17,794 nucleotides of DNA from a virus (taxonomy: Duplodnaviria; Heunggongvirae; Uroviricota; Caudoviricetes), in IMG/VR virus record IMGVR_UViG_2671180275_000001, one strand, 5' to 3'. This document shows, piece after piece, positions 6,490 through 17,794 of this stretch; position 1 is the stretch's first letter; each line of letters opens with the position of its first letter. A model generated the notes under the pieces. It worked only from the letters and a program-made list of their open reading frames with translations. It had not been told where the DNA came from and did no database searches. Both the position numbers and the translations under genes were made by a program.

Positions 6490-8448
6490 TTACGCCGTAC
6501 ATTTCACCAGACCGCGGTGATCAACTGGCGCGACACCGGCGTCAATACGCACTTTCGTTGTCACGCCATCCACACTGAAGCCCTCCATCTGATCAATATA
6601 TGGCGTATCCACACCGTTGAGATAAGCCACTTCAATCGTATCGGAGCCTTTGGACGCAGCCAGGTAGAAGGTGGTCTGGCTGTTATCATCAAGACGAGGC
6701 TCTGCAATAACGGTCGCAAAATCTTTCACCGGGTTAATAATACCTGCGTTAATGTCAGCCCCCTTGACACTTGAGGAGCGAATGACCTGGTTAGCAACAG
6801 ACTCCATCGCCGTCGGTACCAGTACGAACGCAGGACGAATATTCAGATGACGCTCCCCCTCTTTCTGAACGCGCATCAACTGGCGGGCTTTATCCAGCGA
6901 TGCCACGTCCATTGCAGCGCTCTCCAGTACGTTTGCATGTTTCGCTTTATCGAACAGACTTACATTATCTGTGGAGATTTTCGGGTTAGACGTCAGAATG
7001 GCATAAACCAGATCGGCAATGGTGGATTTCGCCGCACGGCCCAGCTTCATCGGGACATCGGTCAGCATATTCAGATCATCATTGATAATGGCCTGACGGG
7101 TGATACTGAACAGCTCGCCATAGGTCGCCAGTGCAATAGTGGCCTGTTTATCTCCGGTGGTGACGTATTTATATTCCGCCCCTTCACGCACCTGACGCAG
7201 AGCACTGAAGCCCCCCATACCCACACGATGGGCAATTTTAAAATCAGACAACTGACCTTTCCGCGTCCACTGTTCATAGGTTTCAGGAGCATCTTCCCAG
7301 CCCTGCAGAATGGCTTTGTTCGCAACATCCAGCAGAATATTACCGAAGTCAGACGTACTGTGTGTGAACGCCGCACCGACCATCTGCATCGGGTTATAAC
7401 TGGAAACCCCAATACCCCGTTCAGTCAGTGACATACGGGCATATTCACGCAGGGTCATCCCGTTGTAGACATTATCACGTTCGGTTTTTTCAAATCCGGC
7501 ACGCGCCATCAGCGCCTGGCGGATCCCGTCCCCCACAAAATTACCGTTACCGGCATAAATATGAGCCGGGGTATTTTTATTGGATGGCGTGGACTCGCGC
7601 CCCATCTCGTTCAACAGCTTTTCGCGGGCCTGCTCCAGCGAACATTCAGGATCGGCAAGACACTGAGCCTGCAGAGTCTGATAACGCCCGCCAAACATGG
7701 CAAACAGATCATTAATACCGTTTACACGCGCTTTTTGCTCTGCCAGTACCTGCGCACGGATACTGTTTTCATCCACCACGGGTGCTGCTGCCTGCACTGG
7801 CGTCCGGGAGGCTGCAGGTTCATCATCCTGTACGCGTGGAGCACTGTTGCGTGGCGGAGTAATCATGTTTCGAATGGATTCCGGCATCTTTTTAAATTCC
7901 TCTGTACGTTTTGACTGAATACATGCCATTGCCTTAACGGCTGGCGTTACCTGATCAGCAAATCCATGTGCCAGACATTCGGCACCGGACATCCAGGTCT
8001 CATCCGCCAGCATGGCAGCAATTTCATCGGTGGTTTTCCCGGTTTTCTGTGCATAAGCGGGTAACAGAACCGCCTCAACTTTATCGAGCAGGTCGGCATA
8101 GGTGCGCATGTCCTCCGCATCACCGCCCGTAAAGCCAAATGGTTTATGAATCATCATGAAAGTGTTTTCCGGCATAATGACCGGGTTTCCCACCATCGCA
8201 ATGACCGACGCCATTGACGCCGCCACACCGTCGACATAAACGGTAATGGACGCACCATGTGTTTTCAGCGCATTAAAAATGGCGATGCCTTCAAAGACAT
8301 CGCCACCCGGTGAATTAATATGGAGATTAATGTGGGTGATATCGCCCAGTGCATTCAGATCACTGATAAACTGCTTCGCTGTAACACCCCAGAAACCAAT
8401 CTCGTCATAAATATAAATATCCGCGTCACTCTGGTGACCAGCCTGCAT
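6490..8448 (-). CDS. fused prohead protease (ClpP-like) / major capsid protein (HK97 fold), 652 aa
   Basis: N-terminus has ClpP-type motifs (IYDEIG, SPGGD, GVAASMAS, MMIHKPFG); C-terminal half has HK97-type capsid blocks (PEGAEYKY, FSITRQAIINDDL, TDTIEVAYLNG, KVRIDAGVA). Start set to the first ATG after the portal stop (MQAGHQSD...); the 739-aa track ORF would overlap the portal by about 250 nt. Confidence 0.9.
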   Translation of the reverse strand: MQAGHQSDADIYIYDEIGFWGVTAKQFISDLNALGDITHINLHINSPGGDVFEGIAIFNALKTHGASITVYVDGVAASMASVIAMVGNPVIMPENTFMMIHKPFGFTGGDAEDMRTYADLLDKVEAVLLPAYAQKTGKTTDEIAAMLADETWMSGAECLAHGFADQVTPAVKAMACIQSKRTEEFKKMPESIRNMITPPRNSAPRVQDDEPAASRTPVQAAAPVVDENSIRAQVLAEQKARVNGINDLFAMFGGRYQTLQAQCLADPECSLEQAREKLLNEMGRESTPSNKNTPAHIYAGNGNFVGDGIRQALMARAGFEKTERDNVYNGMTLREYARMSLTERGIGVSSYNPMQMVGAAFTHSTSDFGNILLDVANKAILQGWEDAPETYEQWTRKGQLSDFKIAHRVGMGGFSALRQVREGAEYKYVTTGDKQATIALATYGELFSITRQAIINDDLNMLTDVPMKLGRAAKSTIADLVYAILTSNPKISTDNVSLFDKAKHANVLESAAMDVASLDKARQLMRVQKEGERHLNIRPAFVLVPTAMESVANQVIRSSSVKGADINAGIINPVKDFATVIAEPRLDDNSQTTFYLAASKGSDTIEVAYLNGVDTPYIDQMEGFSVDGVTTKVRIDAGVAPVDHRGLVKCTA

Positions 8449-8461
8449 CCTGAACCAGGAA

Positions 8462-9970
8462 TTATTCTTCGGACTGGTCGTCGGTGTGCTGCGGCTCCTG
8501 TCGTTTCGTTGCGGCACTGCTGCCTCCTTTATCACTGGCCGGATCGGTATCAAATACCAGATCCAGCTTGCGGTTTTCATCAATTTCGGCCTTGCGCCGA
8601 CGTTTGACATCATCCGGATTACGACCACCAGCACGTACCCAGTCTGATTCTGTCGCCGCTCCACCACGAATCTGGATTTTCCAGGCCTCAGCCTCCTTAA
8701 CAGGGTCAATCCACGGCATCACTGGTCCGGAATACACCGCGGTATACAGTGAAGAACGGTCAAGATCGCGGGGTAGCCTGATAACACCGGATGCCACAGC
8801 CTGTTTCAGCCAGGCACGATACATCGGGCGGGTGACGGCACCAATAAACCAGTCCTGCAGGATCAGGTAGCCATCAGTAGACTCAACCAGTTCCTGACGC
8901 TGGGCGCTGTAAGTGCCGTTATAGTTGCGTGCCGTACTGGAAAAACTCAGACGACTGCCCGCCGCCACGGCACGCAACTGACCATTACGAAAAGTTTCAA
9001 GGTTAGGATTGGGACGATCCGACTTCACCATTCCGATTTCTTCGCCGGGTTTCAGATCGTCGTAAATAATGCCTGGCTGAATGGTAAGCTCGCGTTCATT
9101 CTCCTTGCTGTCATTACCATCCGTTTCATAGCTCTGTCCGTCGCCTTTCCGGATGTACATCCCCAGAGCAGCGGCGATCCTTGCTGCAGTCAGCTCAGAA
9201 TCTTCATACTCTTTCAGGGCGCTGAGGCGGATCAGCACACCGGACAATAAAGACGTCCCGCGCATCTGGTGCAGACGTCGAACAAATTTAAGATGCAGCA
9301 TTCGCTCTGCATCCACTTCTTTGGTTTCCATCTGCCGTCCGGATACAGGACGACTTTTATACACCAGATATTTTTCGGGACGCCCCCAGTCATCAACAAA
9401 CACGCCCTGATTCAGCCTGTTGCTCTCATCACTGGTCATGGGAATAAAGTCCGGCTCGAGCGCCTCCAGCCAGAAATGAACACCGGCAGAAGGCGTCAGG
9501 CTGTTTATGCGCCCGGAAACCATCTGGGCAAACACCTCACCATCGCGCAGCCAGGTACGCAGCATCAGACGTTCCAGCATCGGACGGGTAAACTGCCCGG
9601 TGACTTCCGGACTGACAGACCATTCACTCCATCGGGTACGTATCTCCGCTGCCAGGTCACGGGCAATGGCACCATTGCGTAATACCGGATGTGGCTCGAC
9701 AATAATCCCGTTTTTCCCCACCACCCGTTCTTCCAGCTTGTCAAATACACCAATGACCAGATCGTGGTTGTTATCAAGGTAACGGGCCTGCTCACGTAAC
9801 GACACGGCCCCGTACTGGCTTAACTGGTCGGCAGTTCGGTTCTCCCGTCGGGCTTTGTGTGTCCGCGTCGTTTTTACGGCCTCATAAGCTTGGATCACCG
9901 CTCGGGAACGCAGCCTTGCCGCTTTCCATCCTGGTGAAAAAACGCCAATCACATCATCAAGAATTGCCAT
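8462..9970 (-). CDS. B: portal protein, lambda gpB-like
   Basis: 502-aa ORF from MAILDDVIGVFSPGW with GAGG 5 nt upstream. Position between the W-like gene and the protease/capsid gene; length and overall composition resemble lambda B (533 aa). ATG overlaps the W-like stop (TGATG). Confidence 0.88.
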   Translation of the reverse strand: MAILDDVIGVFSPGWKAARLRSRAVIQAYEAVKTTRTHKARRENRTADQLSQYGAVSLREQARYLDNNHDLVIGVFDKLEERVVGKNGIIVEPHPVLRNGAIARDLAAEIRTRWSEWSVSPEVTGQFTRPMLERLMLRTWLRDGEVFAQMVSGRINSLTPSAGVHFWLEALEPDFIPMTSDESNRLNQGVFVDDWGRPEKYLVYKSRPVSGRQMETKEVDAERMLHLKFVRRLHQMRGTSLLSGVLIRLSALKEYEDSELTAARIAAALGMYIRKGDGQSYETDGNDSKENERELTIQPGIIYDDLKPGEEIGMVKSDRPNPNLETFRNGQLRAVAAGSRLSFSSTARNYNGTYSAQRQELVESTDGYLILQDWFIGAVTRPMYRAWLKQAVASGVIRLPRDLDRSSLYTAVYSGPVMPWIDPVKEAEAWKIQIRGGAATESDWVRAGGRNPDDVKRRRKAEIDENRKLDLVFDTDPASDKGGSSAATKRQEPQHTDDQSEE

Positions 9971-10182
9971 CAGAACCTCGCCAGCCGGTACCCGGGATGC
10001 CCCCGTCGTCGTGTAATCAGAGCCGCAAGGCGGCGCTCCCACTCCTGCCGCCCCTGCCGGATCTCAGATAAGTTTTCCATGGTCATCTGCTGACCATTAA
10101 AAGTGACGGATTTTCCGTCCAGCACTGCCATTTCAGCTTCCGTATAACGCTGAATCATGGCTTCAATATCATTCTGATTCAT
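9970..10182 (-). CDS. W: head-tail joining protein, lambda gpW-like
   Basis: 70-aa ORF (MNQNDIEAMIQRYTEAEMAVLDGKSVTF...RRRGHPGY). Lambda W is about 68 aa and ends ...QRRRGPAGFYV. ATGA overlap with the terminase stop, as for lambda A-W. GGAGG lies 6 nt upstream. Confidence 0.6.
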   Translation of the reverse strand: MNQNDIEAMIQRYTEAEMAVLDGKSVTFNGQQMTMENLSEIRQGRQEWERRLAALITRRRGHPGYRLARF

Positions 10183-11291
10183 AACCATCCTCCGGAAGTC
10201 AGCCAGGGGTTAACATCGTCAGTTACTGTTTTCTTCCGTTTTTGTTTTTTAACAGGCGTGGATACCGGTTCCGGTGTGGGTGACGGTTCGGTACTGTCCG
10301 GGACACACTCCAGCCAGGTTTCCCGGCTCGCCCACTCCGGTGCATCCGGCCAGCGGATCTTTTCGTATCCATGCAGAATGACCAGAGCCTCGGCATACAC
10401 CATCAGGTCAAAAGCTTCGTTGGCACCGCGACCCGGCTTACTCCATTTCCCGTCACTGCTCCGCTCTTCATACGTCAGTTCGTCGTAAAACCAGCTCCCC
10501 AGCCAGTCAGGGAAATGCACATAGCCGGGACCTGGCGAGTCACGCCATAACGCGTTATTCACCCTGTCTTTCAGGGCATCCGTCTGAAGAAGCCAGAGCG
10601 GTACATCACCTGCGGCCTGCGCCCGTCGGCCCGTTCGTCCGGTGTTATCAGGGAATGTACGGGTGATCAGTTTTGCGCGCCGGATGCTGTCGCCCTTAAA
10701 CAGGTAAATACGTTTACCAAGGCCATCACGACGGCAACGACGCCAGAATTTATAGGCATTATCAGTGACCCCGTCTTCACCGCCGGAGTCCACCGCCATT
10801 GCCATCAGTCGCATTTGTTGAGAAGGATCGGAGGCCAGCGGCCAGCTTTTATGAAAAACATCCGTCAGCAGGACATCCCAGTCTTCCGGATAGCTGGCCG
10901 GATCAATTCGCTGGCTCTCCCCGTCGCTGTCACCGCGCAATGACTGCGTGATGTTGTAACGATCAATAATCCAGCGTTCGCCACGGCTGCCATAGCCCGT
11001 TACCTGAACCACAAAACGGCGATGACGTCCCGCCTGCACATCCACTGTCGCCACAAGGAAATTAACGCCATCCGGCACACTGCGGGAAGGAACTGGCTCT
11101 GCCCGCTGCTCAAGCAATTCACTTTTTCGTTGCTCCATGCTGGCGCGGGGAAGATAAGGTAATCCCCAGTCGGTATTGATAACCGTCTTGAGTGTCTCTT
11201 CACTTCCGGTTGTCTCGTATTCCTGTTCTGCAGTAAGCAGTTTGTAAACGAGTTGCGAGAGTGTCTGATAAGCAGCTGCCGGCCCCTCCAT
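10179..11291 (-). CDS. A: terminase large subunit, gpA family, C-terminal portion only (5-prime truncated; probable pseudogene)
   Basis: 370-aa ORF matching the C-terminal part of lambda gpA (LVATVDVQ vs LTAGIDSQ; AVDSGG vs WDTGG; NEAFDLMVYAEAL vs NEALDCFVYALAA). Frame is closed by a stop 11 codons upstream of the ATG; no SD; upstream DNA is AT-rich and non-coding. No Walker-A N-terminal domain. Confidence 0.8.
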   Translation of the reverse strand: MEGPAAAYQTLSQLVYKLLTAEQEYETTGSEETLKTVINTDWGLPYLPRASMEQRKSELLEQRAEPVPSRSVPDGVNFLVATVDVQAGRHRRFVVQVTGYGSRGERWIIDRYNITQSLRGDSDGESQRIDPASYPEDWDVLLTDVFHKSWPLASDPSQQMRLMAMAVDSGGEDGVTDNAYKFWRRCRRDGLGKRIYLFKGDSIRRAKLITRTFPDNTGRTGRRAQAAGDVPLWLLQTDALKDRVNNALWRDSPGPGYVHFPDWLGSWFYDELTYEERSSDGKWSKPGRGANEAFDLMVYAEALVILHGYEKIRWPDAPEWASRETWLECVPDSTEPSPTPEPVSTPVKKQKRKKTVTDDVNPWLTSGGWL

Positions 11292-11313
11292 CCAGGAAGA
11301 AGTAAATAAAAGG

Positions 11314-11761: not shown

Positions 11762-13651
11762 TCATAGTGAATCTGTCCCGCCTGATTTGACCATACCGCG
11801 ATAATCCAGAGCTGCCACACCTGCATCAATACGGACTTTCCAGGCCACGCCGTCAACGATAAAACCTTCCTGCTGTTCAAGGTAAGGCTCGTCATTGCCA
11901 TCAAGATAAGCCACCTCGATTGTGTCAGTTCCCTGTGCGGAAAGCATGTACCATTGTTTTTCGCTGATATCATCAAGGCGGGGATCGACGATGATATCAA
12001 GTAGCTTGTGGTACGGGTTAAAGATCCCGCTGTTTTTATCAGCCCCGAAAGGTGCGGTTGAGTTAATCATCTGCAACGCGCGATCTTCCAGTGCTGCCGG
12101 AACTAAAAGGAATTTAGGCGCAATATTCAGCACTTCGCCATTTTTGTCCTTCTGTGTGCGCATCAGGTGACGTGCTGCACTAAGTCCCGATGTTGTCAGT
12201 CCTGCTTCAATCAGGTTGCTGTGTTTTTTGTCAAACAGCGTTATTCCGTCAGAAAGTTTTACGTTGCCTGTAAGCACCAGATTAACCAGATTTCCCACCG
12301 TTCTTGATGCTGCACGGCCCATAGCCATTGGCACCGTTGATAACTGATCAAGGTCATCATTGATTATCGCCTGGCGGGTAATGCTGAAAATATTCCCGTA
12401 AGTAGCCAGCGCGATGGGTTCACCGCGATCGCTGGTGGTGATGTATTTATATTCTGCCCCTTCCGGCACTTTGCTTAACGTAGAGAAACCATTCAGGCCA
12501 ACGCGGCGGGCTTCACGAAAGTTTGAAAGGGAACCTTTTTTCGTCCACTGGCGGAATGTTTCGCCGCTGTGCTCCCAGCCTGCAAGCACTGATTTTTCAG
12601 CGCCACCAGCAAGGATATCGGTAAAATCGCTGCTGCTGTGGTTGAATGCCGCGTTTACTATCTGCGAGCGTGTGCCGTAGCTGCCCGTGCTTATACCACG
12701 ATGGGTTAATGATGCCTGTGCCATATCGAAAAGACTCATCATGGCGTAAGGATTACCGCGTTCGGCCCGTTCGTGACCAAGACGCGCATTAAGCCCCTGA
12801 CGCATGGCATCGCCAGTTATATTGCCGTTATCCGTGTACGCGTAGTAAAGATTTGCGGGGGTGGTTTTGTTTGTTGGCGTTGATTCTTTACCCATAGCGA
12901 GTAAAAGGCGTTCGCGTGCATTCTCAACGCTACATTCTGAATCCGCAAGACAACTTATAGCCAGGTCGTTATATCTTCCGTTGAAGGTGCCAAACAATTC
13001 ACGGATTCCGTTAAGTCGTTCCTGTTCGCCACTGCCAGTTTTCTGGCTGATCATGCTTTTAATTTTTTCCGGCATATTTGAAAAATCTCCGATTCGTTTT
13101 GATTCAATTCGGGCCATTGCTGTAATCGCGGGTATAACCTCATCTGCGAAGCCGTTAGCCTTACACTCATTGCCATCCATCCAGGTTTCCGCCTCCATCA
13201 TGGCGGTGATTTCCTGTTTGCTCCTGCCCGTTCTTCCGGCGTAGGTTTCTGCCATCGTGTCGCCCAGCTTGTCCATCAGGTCAGCAAAGCGGCGAACGTC
13301 GCCCGACACTCCGGCAGTAACACCACGGGGGGTATGTATCATCATCATCGCGTTTTCAGGCATAACGATGTGATCGCCACACATGGCAATAAACGAGGCC
13401 ATAGAAGCCGCCATGCCCTCAATGTGTACAATTTTCTTTGCCGGATGATTTTTCAGGGCGTTATAGATAGCCAGCCCTTCAAAGATGTCGCCACCAGGTG
13501 AATGGATGCGAAGATGGATTTCAGACGCATTACCACACGCGTTGATCTCGTCAGTAAGTGCCGATGCTTTTACACCGTACCCGCCGATCTCGTCATAAAT
13601 GCGCACATAGACAACATCTGCCATAGCCTTAATGGAAAACCATGTTTTCAT
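11762..13651 (-). CDS. second fused ClpP-like protease / HK97-fold major capsid protein (629 aa), divergent paralogue of 6490..8448
   Basis: Same domain order and motifs (RIYDEIG, HSPGGD, GMAASMAS, MMMIHTPRG, PEGAEYKY, FSITRQAIINDDL, TDTIEVAYLDG, KVRIDAGVA). AGGAGA lies 6 nt upstream of the ATG at 13651, which overlaps the stop of the upstream small ORF (ATGA). Confidence 0.85.
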   Translation of the reverse strand: MKTWFSIKAMADVVYVRIYDEIGGYGVKASALTDEINACGNASEIHLRIHSPGGDIFEGLAIYNALKNHPAKKIVHIEGMAASMASFIAMCGDHIVMPENAMMMIHTPRGVTAGVSGDVRRFADLMDKLGDTMAETYAGRTGRSKQEITAMMEAETWMDGNECKANGFADEVIPAITAMARIESKRIGDFSNMPEKIKSMISQKTGSGEQERLNGIRELFGTFNGRYNDLAISCLADSECSVENARERLLLAMGKESTPTNKTTPANLYYAYTDNGNITGDAMRQGLNARLGHERAERGNPYAMMSLFDMAQASLTHRGISTGSYGTRSQIVNAAFNHSSSDFTDILAGGAEKSVLAGWEHSGETFRQWTKKGSLSNFREARRVGLNGFSTLSKVPEGAEYKYITTSDRGEPIALATYGNIFSITRQAIINDDLDQLSTVPMAMGRAASRTVGNLVNLVLTGNVKLSDGITLFDKKHSNLIEAGLTTSGLSAARHLMRTQKDKNGEVLNIAPKFLLVPAALEDRALQMINSTAPFGADKNSGIFNPYHKLLDIIVDPRLDDISEKQWYMLSAQGTDTIEVAYLDGNDEPYLEQQEGFIVDGVAWKVRIDAGVAALDYRGMVKSGGTDSL

Positions 13652-14299: not shown

Positions 14300-14300
14300 A

Positions 14301-14573
14301 TTAGCTGTCTGGGTAATTACGCCATATTTCATCGCTTACACCATCTATACCCATTTCAGCATAAGTGCGATCGACTACCTTTCTCAGGTCTCCGAAGTTA
14401 TCCGGCGGCTCCGGTGGCCTCTGTGCCTTCCTGGAACATTCCAGCCGTCGCATCGTAACCTGATGCCGTTCCTTGTCTGTCTCCACCAGCTGCATGACTT
14501 CACCCCATCGCGCCGCCGCCCTCCGGTAAAATCCTTTCGCCTCGAGTTCCTCCGCTATGCGGTCATGTATCAT
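14301..14573 (-). CDS. PerC-family-like small transcriptional regulator (90 aa)
   Basis: N-terminal IAEELEAKGFYRRAAARWGEVM matches the AExLExKG-(F/W)-RRAAxRW signature I associate with PerC/Pch proteins. ATG at 14573 with GGAGAG upstream. Confidence 0.5.
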   Translation of the reverse strand: MIHDRIAEELEAKGFYRRAAARWGEVMQLVETDKERHQVTMRRLECSRKAQRPPEPPDNFGDLRKVVDRTYAEMGIDGVSDEIWRNYPDS

Positions 14574-14748
14574 CGCCTGACTCTCCGGTTTTTACGTTGA
14601 TGGTTGTTACCTGTTCCGCTTCGGCAATCTCCCGTTCTGTCAACGTGGCAAAGTTTGCCGCCGCTGTGGTCATGAATGCGCTTATCAGTTCGGGATGCTC
14701 CTTCGCGTATCCTTCCCCAGCGTGGCGGTCTATTACCCTGATTGCCAC
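14563..14748 (-). CDS. small acidic hypothetical protein (61 aa); frame and start uncertain
   Basis: Protein-like composition (MAIRVIDRHAGEGYAKEHPELISAF...); GTG start without a clear SD. An overlapping 77-aa Arg-rich frame (14570..14803) ends in an ATGA overlap with the PerC-like start and could be the real gene instead. Confidence 0.3.
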   Translation of the reverse strand: MAIRVIDRHAGEGYAKEHPELISAFMTTAAANFATLTEREIAEAEQVTTINVKTGESGDDT

Positions 14749-14785
14749 CTTTAAGGCGTGCTCTGTCTCTGCGCATTTTGGTTAT

Positions 14786-14990
14786 CTCCTCACTCATGCT
14801 CACTTTTACACCTCACTTTTTAAAGCGTCTCGCTTCGTCTCACTTGATATTTTTTGATGCTTTATGTGTGTGTTTCATAAGGATTTTTTTACTCCTCACT
14901 TTTGAGCATGTATACAGGTGAGAAAGTGAGTAATCGTGTTAATATTTTGTAAAAACCTCACCATTACTCACTTTTGCTACTCACTTTTTA
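14786..14990. repeat. iteron-like direct repeats (CTCACTTTT) flanking an AT-rich spacer; candidate replication origin
   Basis: At least six direct copies of (C)TCACTTTT plus one inverted copy (GTGAGAAAGTGAG) around an AT-rich stretch at about 14846-14892, immediately 3-prime of the helicase-like gene. Confidence 0.5.
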
Positions 14991-16388
14991 CAGTGGTCCT
15001 ACATCATCACCATCAATGTAAATCACGGCGTCTTTTTCCAGTTTGGCTAACCATCGCCGCATATTTTTCACGTCATACCCAAGCCGTTTCATGTCATCAC
15101 GTAACAGCGGGATCGTGCACTTGTCGCCGTTCTGTGTGCGTGAACGGATGCACCCCCATAGTGCGGTATGGTTTTCCGTCTTGTTGCCTGCCTCCTCGAT
15201 GCGTTCCAGTTCAACGGGAGGGCGCGGCTTATCCACCACCACCAGCGACGTGATTAACTCCCCGTCAGCGTCGGTAAACAGCTCCACCACGCGTAAGTCA
15301 TATGCGGCTTCTTTGAGTTCCTCCGCGTCCTTCATTTTGGTGCATGAGATAACCAGCGCTTCGCTTCCTGCGTCCTCCCTGCGTATCCGGTATTCAGCAT
15401 CCAGCGAAGCACGAAATGCACTGGAACCGCGCGCGCCTTTCGTCTCATCCTTGCCGGAATGGTGAACCACCAGCACCGTGGCCCCTGTGCGTCGTTTCAG
15501 TTCGTCACAACCACGGATAAACGCCCCCATATCACGGGAATCATTTTCATCATTCCCACCAAAGCAACGCGCCAGCGTATCCAGAATAATCATGCGTACA
15601 GGTTTACCCGTTTCCCGCTCCACCTGACGGGCAGCGATAACCATTTCATCAACATCAAGCGGGGCAGCCGGAAAGATGGGGCGGTTTACCAGATACAGAT
15701 TTTTCACCTGCTCATCGTGCACAACCTCCCAGGCTTTTACACGACGCGGAACACCTATACCGCCTTCACCAACCACATAGAGAACCGCACCATGTGCAAC
15801 CCTGCGGCCTCCCCACTGGCGACCAGTGGCAACATGGCACGCCCACGATCCGGCAAGGAATGATTTATAGGACCCGCTAGCCCCGTATATGCTGCACAGC
15901 GATACCGCCGGAATAATCCCCTTAACCACGTAATCAAGTTGTGTGTCGTATCCGGCAGATCCCACGCTCATTGGTAGCGTGGTTTTTCGCTGGTGGTGTT
16001 TTTCTTCCCCTGGCTTTTTCCCCCGCTCCCGTTCCAGATATTCGCGCCAGTTCTCCCGCTTCTGGCTGTGCATCCCTTCGGGGTAATAATTCGCATCAGT
16101 TACACCCGCCGCCGCCAGCTTGTGCGCAATGGCATTAATATTTGATGGCCTGATGTGGCCTGCCTTGTACAGCCGGACACAATAGCGCCCCTCGTCGATG
16201 ATTCTCAGGTCTGCCAGTTCATCCAGTTGATCATCAGCCAGCACAACGGGAGGCACATTATCGCCAGCCAGTCGCCCGTCCTGTTCCTGCCACTGTTTCG
16301 CATGTGCCCAGGCATCACTACCCGCAAAAATAATGACTTCGGTCATCTTGTCGTAAGGCTGTTTTTTTAAGTTCGGTGCGCTTTTCAT
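14988..16388 (-). CDS. replication protein: RepA/DnaB-like RecA-fold P-loop helicase (AAA_25-like) with an N-terminal domain of unclear type
   Basis: Walker A YGASGSYKSF and Walker B MIILDTLARCFGGNDEND, with LVVHHSGKDETKGARGSSAF downstream, as in RepA-type hexameric helicases. ATGA overlap with the upstream 99-aa ORF. Confidence 0.75.
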   Translation of the reverse strand: MKSAPNLKKQPYDKMTEVIIFAGSDAWAHAKQWQEQDGRLAGDNVPPVVLADDQLDELADLRIIDEGRYCVRLYKAGHIRPSNINAIAHKLAAAGVTDANYYPEGMHSQKRENWREYLERERGKKPGEEKHHQRKTTLPMSVGSAGYDTQLDYVVKGIIPAVSLCSIYGASGSYKSFLAGSWACHVATGRQWGGRRVAHGAVLYVVGEGGIGVPRRVKAWEVVHDEQVKNLYLVNRPIFPAAPLDVDEMVIAARQVERETGKPVRMIILDTLARCFGGNDENDSRDMGAFIRGCDELKRRTGATVLVVHHSGKDETKGARGSSAFRASLDAEYRIRREDAGSEALVISCTKMKDAEELKEAAYDLRVVELFTDADGELITSLVVVDKPRPPVELERIEEAGNKTENHTALWGCIRSRTQNGDKCTIPLLRDDMKRLGYDVKNMRRWLAKLEKDAVIYIDGDDVGPL

Positions 16389-16684
16389 TTCTTGCCCCTG
16401 AATCCGTTAATCATGGTTTTCAGCTTCTGGATGTTTGCCCGTGCCCTGGCGTTGCTGGTGGGCACGTTATGCGGCGCGGTCTGTACCAGAGAAAAATCAC
16501 GCCGGAACTGATAAACAGGCATCACGCAATCATATTCGTAACCTTCACGGCGGTAAGTTACGCACCGTCCCGCCACGCCCTTAATCATTACCGTACCGCC
16601 GTACTGGTCGCGGTAAATATCACCGCGCGTAAATTTAGGGTGAGTGTTGCCACTGGCAGTTAAGCCAGAATATTTAAGTTTCAT
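16385..16684 (-). CDS. hypothetical protein (99 aa)
   Basis: ATG start; stop overlaps the helicase start (ATGA). No recognised motif. Confidence 0.5.
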   Translation of the reverse strand: MKLKYSGLTASGNTHPKFTRGDIYRDQYGGTVMIKGVAGRCVTYRREGYEYDCVMPVYQFRRDFSLVQTAPHNVPTSNARARANIQKLKTMINGFRGKK

Positions 16685-16689
16685 TATTT

Positions 16690-16923
16690 TTATTCTCCGG
16701 TGTGCTGTTCTTTATATCTGTCGTGCAATAGATCTATTTCTTGCAGTTCCATTATTACATGCTCAAGAATCGTTATTAATGCCGTGGCAATTCTTGATTT
16801 TTGTTTGTCGCGTTCATTGTCGCCAAGTGTTTCAAGCCATATGCGCAATATTTCCATCATGCTTTCACTGTGAGAAAGTGCAAGAAATGCGCGGTCTATT
16901 GTTTCAAGATAAATATCACGCAT
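16690..16923 (-). CDS. hypothetical helical protein (77 aa)
   Basis: ATG one nt after the stop of the upstream ORF (TAAtATG); GGGGA upstream. No recognised motif. Confidence 0.45.
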   Translation of the reverse strand: MRDIYLETIDRAFLALSHSESMMEILRIWLETLGDNERDKQKSRIATALITILEHVIMELQEIDLLHDRYKEQHTGE

Positions 16924-17540: not shown

Positions 17541-17701
17541 GTTGGCAGCCTCCTCAGTGTGGTTAAGATAACCGCCACGCAAAAGGCTAATTTCGCTGGT
17601 GGCGGACTGTACAGGGTTAGCCTTACCGGACACTGAAGAAACCGGCGCGGATTGCTCCGCCCCCGTACAGCCCACCATTGATAAGGTGTGACTATGCGGC
17701 A

Positions 17702-17725
17702 CAAAAAAACACGCGGGGCGCGTGC
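17702..17725 (-). terminator. intrinsic terminator-like hairpin closing a transcription unit that lies beyond the window end
   Basis: Minus strand CACGCG-CCC-CGCGTG followed by T7. Confidence 0.4.
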
Positions 17726-17794
17726 TGTGCGCTTCAGTTGTTTTCAGGAGGCTAATCCCGACACCCGTTTTATGAGGTGCGCGGGAATCATAGC

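Follow-up and report, generated by a model that had tools for sequence, protein, structure and literature searches.

A RepA-type initiator-helicase gene and its iteron array as the probable replication zone of a phage-inducible chromosomal island in a prophage terminase gene

Phage-inducible chromosomal islands (PICIs) of Gram-negative bacteria have a published definition of their replication zone, in which iteron sets flank an AT-rich region (PMC6092414). Among the catalogued Escherichia coli PICIs is EcCIRM12579, for which coordinates are given in Table S1 and a "helicase RepA family protein" is listed as the Pri-Rep in the tree of Fig. S10 (Fillol-Salom et al. 2018, PMC6092414). The cloned rep-ori of another island, EcCICFT073, sustains a thermosensitive plasmid (PMC6092414). 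In SaPIs, the pathogenicity islands of Staphylococcus aureus, initiator and helicase are one protein, Rep, whose C-terminal winged helix reads short iterons (Ubeda/Novick work summarised in Qiao et al. 2022, PMC9371898). These iterons flank an AT-rich region directly downstream of rep, some in opposite orientation, and the motors of SaPI Reps are AAA+ domains of superfamily 3 (SF3) or of the MCM-like superfamily 6 (SF6), with 3'->5' polarity (PMC9371898). Here we examine a stretch of 17,794 nucleotides from a virus record (IMGVR_UViG_2671180275_000001, hereafter the window), which contains a gene for a RepA-type protein (rep; protein Rep) followed by an iteron-bearing intergenic region (ori). 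We consider it very probable that this region is the replication zone of a Gram-negative PICI embedded in the large-terminase gene (terL) of a lambdoid prophage. The coordinates of all features are collected in Table 1.

The assignment starts from DNA identity. Positions 14500-16700 of the window share 94.2% identity over 2.2 kb with part of EcCIRM12579 (NC_017656.1 1438155-1449376). This island and its relatives from O157, O55, O26 and O103 strains have the same rep allele, the same AAAAGTGAG iterons, the same architecture and the same flanks, consisting of genes for a DUF4222 protein, a hypothetical protein, a single-stranded DNA-binding protein (SSB) and a PerC-family regulator. The window copy differs from EcCIRM12579 in that it resides in another backbone (prophage terL, ClpP-protease/capsid fusion) and has lost the SSB gene. 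The rep-ori stretch is also 97% identical to one in an island in tqsA that resembles capsid-forming PICIs (cf-PICIs; L001), and the module recurs in further cf-PICI-like islands (L087, L088) and in chromosomal PICIs with a protease/capsid fusion (L085, L089). A megablast search with 14500-16700 against a phage collection returned no match; the element is a chromosomal satellite and not a sequenced phage.

A reading made earlier from the sequence alone had described this region as a SaPI/PICI-style replication module unlike lambda O/P. The first half of that description is borne out by the identity to a catalogued PICI whose corresponding protein is listed as Pri-Rep. The second half is right in so far as no O/P features are found, but the module is not that of the phage; it differs from lambda O/P because it belongs to a satellite. 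This changes the annotation of the whole window, for which a satellite lodged within its helper prophage is a better description than an unusual lambdoid phage whose replication module is foreign. The general layout of the origin is already published and this type of PICI is already catalogued. What the present analysis adds is a family-wide map of RepA-type PICI origins, the assignment of a RecA-fold motor, similar to helicase superfamily 4 (SF4), and a winged helix to their initiator, and a testable one-residue rule that passed a prediction.

The composite nature of the window can be followed gene by gene. Positions 1 to ~11290 belong to a lambdoid prophage and hold its late region, with the tape measure gene, genes for tail and head, the gene for a ClpP-protease/capsid fusion, the portal gene and a C-terminal fragment of terL, while the sequence from ~11295 to the end is an island inserted in the terminase gene. 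In the closest full-length relative (L002, from E. coli 15A, 97%), the N-terminal half of terL is found beyond the integrase gene (int) of the island, on the same strand. The genes of the L002 island are all co-oriented and comprise int, a gene of the AlpA type with a helix-turn-helix (HTH) motif, BRO-N, an Icd-like gene, small genes, DUF4222, rep, ori, SSB and a 629-residue ClpP-protease/capsid fusion. By way of L002, the island thus has the gene content of a PICI: int and alpA are there, the genes all run in one direction, and the island itself lacks genes for lysis or tail. The same holds for L001 and L085-L089. The island junctions share a short core, CATCCAG(G/A)AA, of about 7-9 bp (window 10179-11300; L002 23264-23275 and about 33000), and no long direct attachment repeats (seed 12) were found at the ends of the L002 island.

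A terL gene split by a co-oriented island, as seen in the window and in L002, is the configuration of the helper-embedded PICIs (HE-PICIs; Tommasini, Mageeney & Williams 2023, PMC10111431). The target in the window is a terL of the lambda-gpA type, whereas the gene-A sites listed in the HE-PICI supplement fall in the Terminase_1 profile, and the string "Terminase_GpA" is not found among the entries listed there (PMC10111431). The gpA-type terL may be an uncatalogued site for helper-embedded PICIs.

Since rep is on the minus strand, the region 3' of the gene has lower window coordinates. The rep stop codon occupies 14988-14990 and the next ATG is at 14776. In gene sense, the iteron motif of this intergenic region consists of an A-tract followed by GTGAG, which appears as CTCACTTTT on the plus strand. 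Exact copies of CTCACTTTT start at 14799, 14812, 14895, 14967 and 14980, and none occurs elsewhere in the 17.8-kb window. At least six direct repeats and one inverted copy had been proposed for this site; the exact copies number only five, but the CTCAC core is present eight times in direct and twice in inverted orientation in the 213-bp intergenic stretch, where the rest of the window predicts 0.145 copies (Poisson P about 1e-15). Over its whole length the array contains about nine direct and two inverted iterons. The best family of 8-mers in ori has nine members, whereas 200 dinucleotide shuffles gave 3.35 on average and never more than 5. GC content is 27-37% between 14820 and 14980 and about 55% in the flanks, in line with the earlier suggestion of an AT-rich region with iterons on either side.

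Read in the direction of rep, ori begins with a proximal block of direct iterons, the first of which overlaps the rep stop codon by 1 nt. After a spacer of about 25 nt follows a dyad, in which an inverted iteron (14922-14930, CTCACTTTC on the minus strand) and a degenerate one (14917-14922) are opposed to a direct copy across the palindrome TGTATACA. The AT-rich spacer separates this dyad from the distal block, whose last iteron (14789-95) overlaps the ribosome-binding site of the next open reading frame (ORF). The entire ori is base-for-base identical to that of L001 and is conserved in EcCIRM12579. No DnaA box with two or fewer mismatches is present in ori (14777-14987). In its sequence, this arrangement conforms to the published replication zone of Gram-negative PICIs (PMC6092414).

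The protein encoded next to this array is related to replicative helicases. A profile search places Pfam AAA_25 on residues 147-315 of Rep (E 9e-44, 149.8 bits versus a curated cutoff of 27), and the full-length protein matches PHROG 2850. Rep is 94-97% identical to "helicase RepA family protein" entries of E. coli PICIs, and its core shares 31-41% identity with phage proteins that are annotated either as DnaB-like helicase or as replicative helicase/primase. Many relatives are 680-700 residues long and consist of Zn_Ribbon_Prim, Toprim_3 and AAA_25 domains followed by the same C-terminal domain as in Rep; over the helicase and winged-helix parts these primase-fused homologs are 55-70% identical to Rep. 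Fold searches (Foldseek) with the core retrieve the RecA-fold ATPases T7 gp4, Rad51/RadA and KaiC, and the best relative in the PDB is RSF1010 RepA (1g8y). Of the two Walker motifs that the sequence-only reading had named, the B motif (IILDT) is present, and the A motif is present in a deviant form. Walker B, HHSGK and GARGSS are kept in 76 of 78 Rep relatives. By profile score and conserved ATPase motifs, Rep belongs to the RepA/AAA_25 group of SF4-like RecA-fold helicases, as had been supposed from the ORF.

Outside of the core, the AlphaFold2 model of residues 405-466 is confident and contains three helices and a beta hairpin. The fold-search matches were placed on this C-terminal domain by inference from aligned length and topology. 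The first 125 residues also fold confidently on their own, with a predicted local distance difference test score (pLDDT) of 85.8. Sequence searches with the N-terminal domain detected no Toprim or zinc-ribbon signature, and neither terminal domain alone gave a significant match in the PDB or Pfam (Cas2 E 0.1, HTH_36 E 0.12, Atg16 E 0.12). The two domains are therefore assigned by fold only. According to these models, Rep is likely to combine a Toprim-like N-terminal domain, a RecA-fold RepA/AAA_25 core and a C-terminal winged helix. Since Rep lacks the zinc-ribbon primase and Toprim domains of Pfam, it does not qualify as a bifunctional primase-helicase of the T7 gp4 type, and it is probably not a primase.

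Comparison with other replication systems places this protein between known designs. RSF1010 RepA, the closest relative of the core with a solved structure, shares the Walker A and B, HHxxK and Arg-finger motifs with Rep. However, it is a bare helicase of 279 residues, whereas Rep carries a fused N-terminal domain and a predicted origin-binding winged helix. The iterons of RSF1010 are recognised by a separate initiator, RepC. The T7 gp4 order of zinc ribbon, Toprim and RecA-fold helicase recurs in the 680-700-residue relatives, to which the winged helix is added; gp4 has no origin-binding domain, and the N-terminal domain of Rep resembles Toprim in fold. With lambda O/P-ori, the window module has iterons and an AT-rich region in common. 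The lambda origin is contained in the O gene, and P is the link by which O recruits host DnaB. The window ori, on the other hand, is intergenic, the initiator is itself of the helicase type, and the module resides outside the lambdoid phage genome; accordingly, no O- or P-type matches were found in Pfam or PHROG. The SaPI Reps are similar in that a C-terminal winged helix, predicted in the case of Rep, specifies the iterons, but the Rep motor is a RecA-fold AAA_25 domain and not an SF3- or MCM-like AAA+ domain, and there is no detectable sequence homology between Rep and SaPI Reps. By analogy, Rep may work like a SaPI Rep from outside that protein family. PICI initiators would then include at least one more helicase superfamily in the design of initiator-helicase, winged helix and 3' iterons that is known from SaPIs.

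EcCICFT073, the island with the experimentally validated origin, agrees with the window module in gene order (DUF4222, Pri-Rep, ori, hypothetical gene, SSB, PerC, capsid genes). It also agrees in the position of ori directly 3' of rep and in the two sets of iterons that flank an AT-rich region there. Its Pri-Rep is 65% identical to Rep over the first 125 residues only. The motor that follows in EcCICFT073 consists of D5_N/DUF5906/Pox_D5 domains (TIGR01613; P4-family, SF3-type), which are absent from Rep, and the iterons (TGTCTACC/GGTAGA) are unrelated to the AAAGTGAG of the window. For this reason the shared N-terminal domain was rejected as a candidate iteron reader. The same N-terminal domain (window 16014-16388; L083 5242-5616; 65% identity) thus heads two unrelated motors, always after a DUF4222 gene, which suggests a swappable module that perhaps interacts with DUF4222 or with a host factor. 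Whichever rep allele an E. coli PICI carries, the DUF4222 gene is found beside it (L001, L002, EcCICFT073, EcCIRM12579, L085-L089).

To describe the origin across the family, one genome per species was scanned, which gave 80 loci with Rep relatives at 51-71% identity. They are spread over the Enterobacterales and come from Xenorhabdus, Photorhabdus, Pectobacterium, Dickeya, Serratia, Pantoea, Erwinia, Morganella, Yersinia pestis, Kosakonia, Citrobacter and others. In nearly all of the ~80 loci, repeats occupy matching positions in the 200 nt past the rep stop codon: direct copies at about +2, +13 and +23, an inverted copy at about +55, a direct copy at about +85 and, after a gap, a further group from about +145 to +195. 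The equivalents of the distal iterons fall at about +145, +155, +172, +185 and +195, and the iteron-free gap of about 50-60 nt is kept in position across loci. The sequence of the repeats differs by lineage (AAAGTGAG(G), AAGTGGGGGAA, AAGTGGGGA or TAAGTGCGGCA). Conservation of the repeats in homologous loci, on which the proposal of an origin depended, is therefore found at the level of architecture, with a sequence that co-varies with the C-terminal domain of Rep. Constant architecture combined with changing repeat sequence is what would be expected of a binding-site array that co-evolves with its protein. The repeats also stay with rep when the downstream genes are different, as with a toxin-antitoxin pair in the Pectobacterium locus L054 and other genes in L087.

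The centre of the dyad, TGTATA[CT]A, is conserved in 12 of 12 aligned origins from eight genera and in a Klebsiella element (L091). This non-iteron motif is kept from E. coli to Xenorhabdus, Pectobacterium, Morganella and Klebsiella, and it could be a melting or loading site or a site for a host factor.

Two loci show the replicon in other settings. In Pectobacterium polonicum (L054, 5400-12700), the island that contains the primase-helicase-ori module also encodes two integrases, an Ash-family protein, a KAP NTPase and a toxin-antitoxin pair of the Gp49/HTH kind. This island has no capsid genes; hence the replicon also occurs in islands that do not resemble PICIs. The Klebsiella element L091 (CP018459.1) is a circular K. 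pneumoniae record of 16,971 bp that was deposited as a plasmid. Gene for gene it is a cf-PICI-like satellite, with int, a DNA-binding gene, a Rep homolog and iteron origin, capsid, adaptor and terS/terL; a further gene is annotated as tape measure. The record probably represents an excised satellite that was assembled as a replicon.

When the C-terminal domains were sorted by iteron class across genera, the variable base of the iteron turned out to be tracked by a single position where the third helix (K-x-F-x-R-W-L) starts. The pairs are KNF with GTGAG, KHF with GTGGGGA, KKF with GTGGGGG and KSF with TGCGGC. Among loci with at least four scorable iteron copies this association has no exception (KNF/TGAGG 22/22, KHF/TGGGG 8/8, KKF/TGGGG 29/29, KSF/TGCGG 8/8). 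For the window locus, which fell out of the automated tally, the KNM helix and the GTGAG iterons were taken straight from the sequence. Common contact preferences pair Asn with adenine, and His or Lys with guanine. The pairings recur on different domain backgrounds, as KNF is found in E. coli and Xenorhabdus, and KHF in E. coli and Pantoea/Kluyvera.

From this rule we predicted beforehand that E. coli KHF/KHL alleles, the C-terminal domain of which is otherwise near-identical to that of the window Rep, should have G in place of A in their iterons. The E. coli alleles P0007, P0096 and P0037, fetched after the rule had been set, have the iterons AAAAGTGGGGA and AAAAGTGGG[C/T/A] in an unchanged architecture, as predicted. 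L091 also obeys the rule, with RKSF and TAAGTGCGGCA.

We judge the case evenly balanced for a more general proposal, namely that RecA-fold RepA-type proteins with a C-terminal winged helix constitute a distinct class of self-loading initiator-helicases of PICIs, cf-PICIs and other Enterobacterales islands, the origin specificity of which is set largely by one recognition-helix residue (Asn for GTGAG, His or Lys for GTGGG, Ser for GTGCG). If this is true, a new replicon specificity group would arise from a single substitution combined with drift of the iterons, by which co-resident satellites could avoid cross-talk, and the head-to-head iteron dyad around TGTATACA would be the site of loading and melting. 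The identity of residue 442 and the fourth base of GTGNG could then predict cross-activation of origins among satellites.

With these elements the replication of the island may be envisaged as follows. Induction of the helper phage would turn on the single rightward operon of the PICI. Rep would then bind the iterons through its winged helix, with Asn442 reading the A of GTGAG, and Rep hexamers may assemble on both sides of the AT-rich region, with the dyad around TGTATACA as the likely point of nucleation or melting. By analogy with SaPI Reps (PMC9371898) and RSF1010 RepA, Rep could open the DNA without DnaA and subsequently serve as its own replicative helicase. Translocation would probably proceed 5'->3', as for RSF1010 RepA and other SF4 helicases, and opposite to the SF3/MCM-type SaPI Reps. 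Host DnaG is the presumed primase, because the window allele lacks the zinc-ribbon primase of its 700-residue relatives, and synthesis would fall to Pol III. The outcome would be amplification of the excised island for packaging.

Several points weigh against the assignment as a working PICI replication zone. The Walker A motif of Rep (residues 169-176; 15861-15884) has Tyr/Phe instead of the canonical Gly before Lys; the variant G[AP]SGS[YF]KS is nonetheless present in all 76 relatives in which the motif was found, primase-fused ones included. The AlphaFold2 model of the ATPase core has low confidence (mean pLDDT 59.8). Integrase and alpA are located outside of the window, and together with the loss of SSB and the frameshifted neighbour this makes the activity of the window copy uncertain. 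The covariation counts are phylogenetically non-independent, with only a handful of independent switches evident. Because the EcCICFT073 origin works with another motor and other iterons, its validation would transfer to the window by analogy only. Finally, we infer that the origin fires, that rep-ori replicates autonomously, that Rep acts as a helicase with the polarity and oligomeric state given above, and that its winged helix binds the iterons.

These uncertainties leave some room, albeit limited, for the possibility that rep-ori is a non-functional relic in a decaying, immobile island remnant of a defective prophage, which we consider unlikely. Consistent with such decay, a 35-bp deletion has caused a frameshift just downstream of ori, where the SSB gene present in EcCIRM12579, L001 and L002 has been deleted and PerC has been brought close to ori; furthermore, terL of the host prophage is split, and the BRO-N gene is a pseudogene in L002. 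On the other hand, the full-length rep shares 94-97% identity with intact alleles, ori is identical to that of L001, and a split terL is no sign of decay, since helper-embedded PICIs normally have it (PMC10111431). The island may thus be decaying although rep and ori are intact.

It is considerably less probable that the repeats are no origin at all but mainly an operator or promoter of the PerC (SSB) genes downstream, to which some regulator distinct from Rep binds. The array does lie directly upstream of the next ORF, with its last degenerate copy across the ribosome-binding site, and islands of this kind encode PerC-family and AlpA regulators. The sequence-only reading had also entertained a second role as operator on account of this position. 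However, a scan for sigma-70 promoters found none in 14300-15200, and the array follows rep whatever lies downstream, be it the toxin-antitoxin pair of L054, the genes of L087 or the deleted neighbourhood of the window. Moreover, the iteron core co-varies with the C-terminal helix of Rep and not with a neighbouring regulator, and a PICI origin of the same layout has been published. While the position upstream of a PerC-like gene is correct, the operator role finds no support in these data. Rep itself may, however, bind the repeats in autoregulation.

The suggestion that the ATPase is another RecA-fold type (recombinase, KaiC-like, defence or packaging) which the repeats serve can draw on the Rad51, RadA and KaiC matches beside T7 gp4, on an NCBIfam search that gave only sub-threshold RadA matches and on the deviant Walker A, but a non-replicative role is very improbable because of the primase-fused relatives, the DnaB-like phage matches and the Pri-Rep slot that this protein occupies in PICIs, so that, as the earlier proposal demanded, Rep clusters with replicative helicases.

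Table 1. Features of the replication zone and its surroundings (window coordinates).
Feature	Position	Strand	Remarks
rep, initiator-helicase, PICI "Pri-Rep" allele of RepA/AAA_25 type	14988..16388, stop codon included	-	single open frame, 466 aa
Rep N-terminal domain (aa 1-125), Toprim-like fold	16014..16388	-	common to the otherwise unrelated EcCICFT073 Pri-Rep
Rep RecA-like ATPase core (aa 147-315)	15444..15950	-	Walker A GASGSYKS, Walker B IILDT, HHSGK; GARGSS just beyond
Rep C-terminal winged-helix domain (aa 405-466), predicted iteron reader	14991..15176	-	
Rep predicted recognition helix, K441-N442-M-R-R-W-L-A-K-L-E-K	15033..15068	-	residue 442 follows the variable iteron base
ori, iteron/AT-rich intergenic region between rep stop codon and next start codon	14777..14987	.	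211 bp
Proximal iteron block, three direct copies	14957..14988	-	AAAAAGTGAG 14980-14988; AAAAGTGAG 14967-14975; GGTGAG 14957-14962
Dyad element	14895..14930	.	two inverted iterons (14917-14930) face one direct (14895-14903) across TGTATACA
Dyad centre TGTATACA, palindrome	14909-14916	.	non-iteron element
AT-rich spacer, candidate unwinding region	14846..14894	.	about 50 nt; GC 27-35%; between dyad and distal iterons
Distal iteron block, five direct copies	14789..14845	-	14839-45, 14829-35, 14812-20, 14799-07, 14789-95
DUF4222 gene	16385..16684	-	PF13973 E 2e-23; upstream of rep, translationally coupled
Remnant of first gene after ori	14570..14776	-	35-bp deletion with frameshift; from alignment with EcCIRM12579 and L001
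PerC-family regulator gene, usual PICI accessory gene	14301..14573	-	PF06069 E 4e-44; downstream of replication zone
terL fragment, lambda-gpA-type large terminase	10179..11291	-	C-terminal 370 codons; abuts island

The remaining observations concern other parts of the island. Earlier work reports PerC from E. coli PICIs (PMC6092414). Rfam detects a C4 antisense RNA (17595-17682, minus strand, 75 bits) and isrK (17704-17780, minus strand, 62 bits) at the upstream end of the island. Both are immunity RNA elements of the P4-type CI/seqA-like kind, which have been reported for Gram-negative PICIs. The window also contains two fusions of a ClpP protease with a major capsid protein, both on the minus strand, one of 629 residues in the island (11762-13651) and one of 739 residues in the helper prophage (6490-8709). 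The satellite thus has its own version of a head gene of the helper, which fits late-gene capture or capsid redirection.

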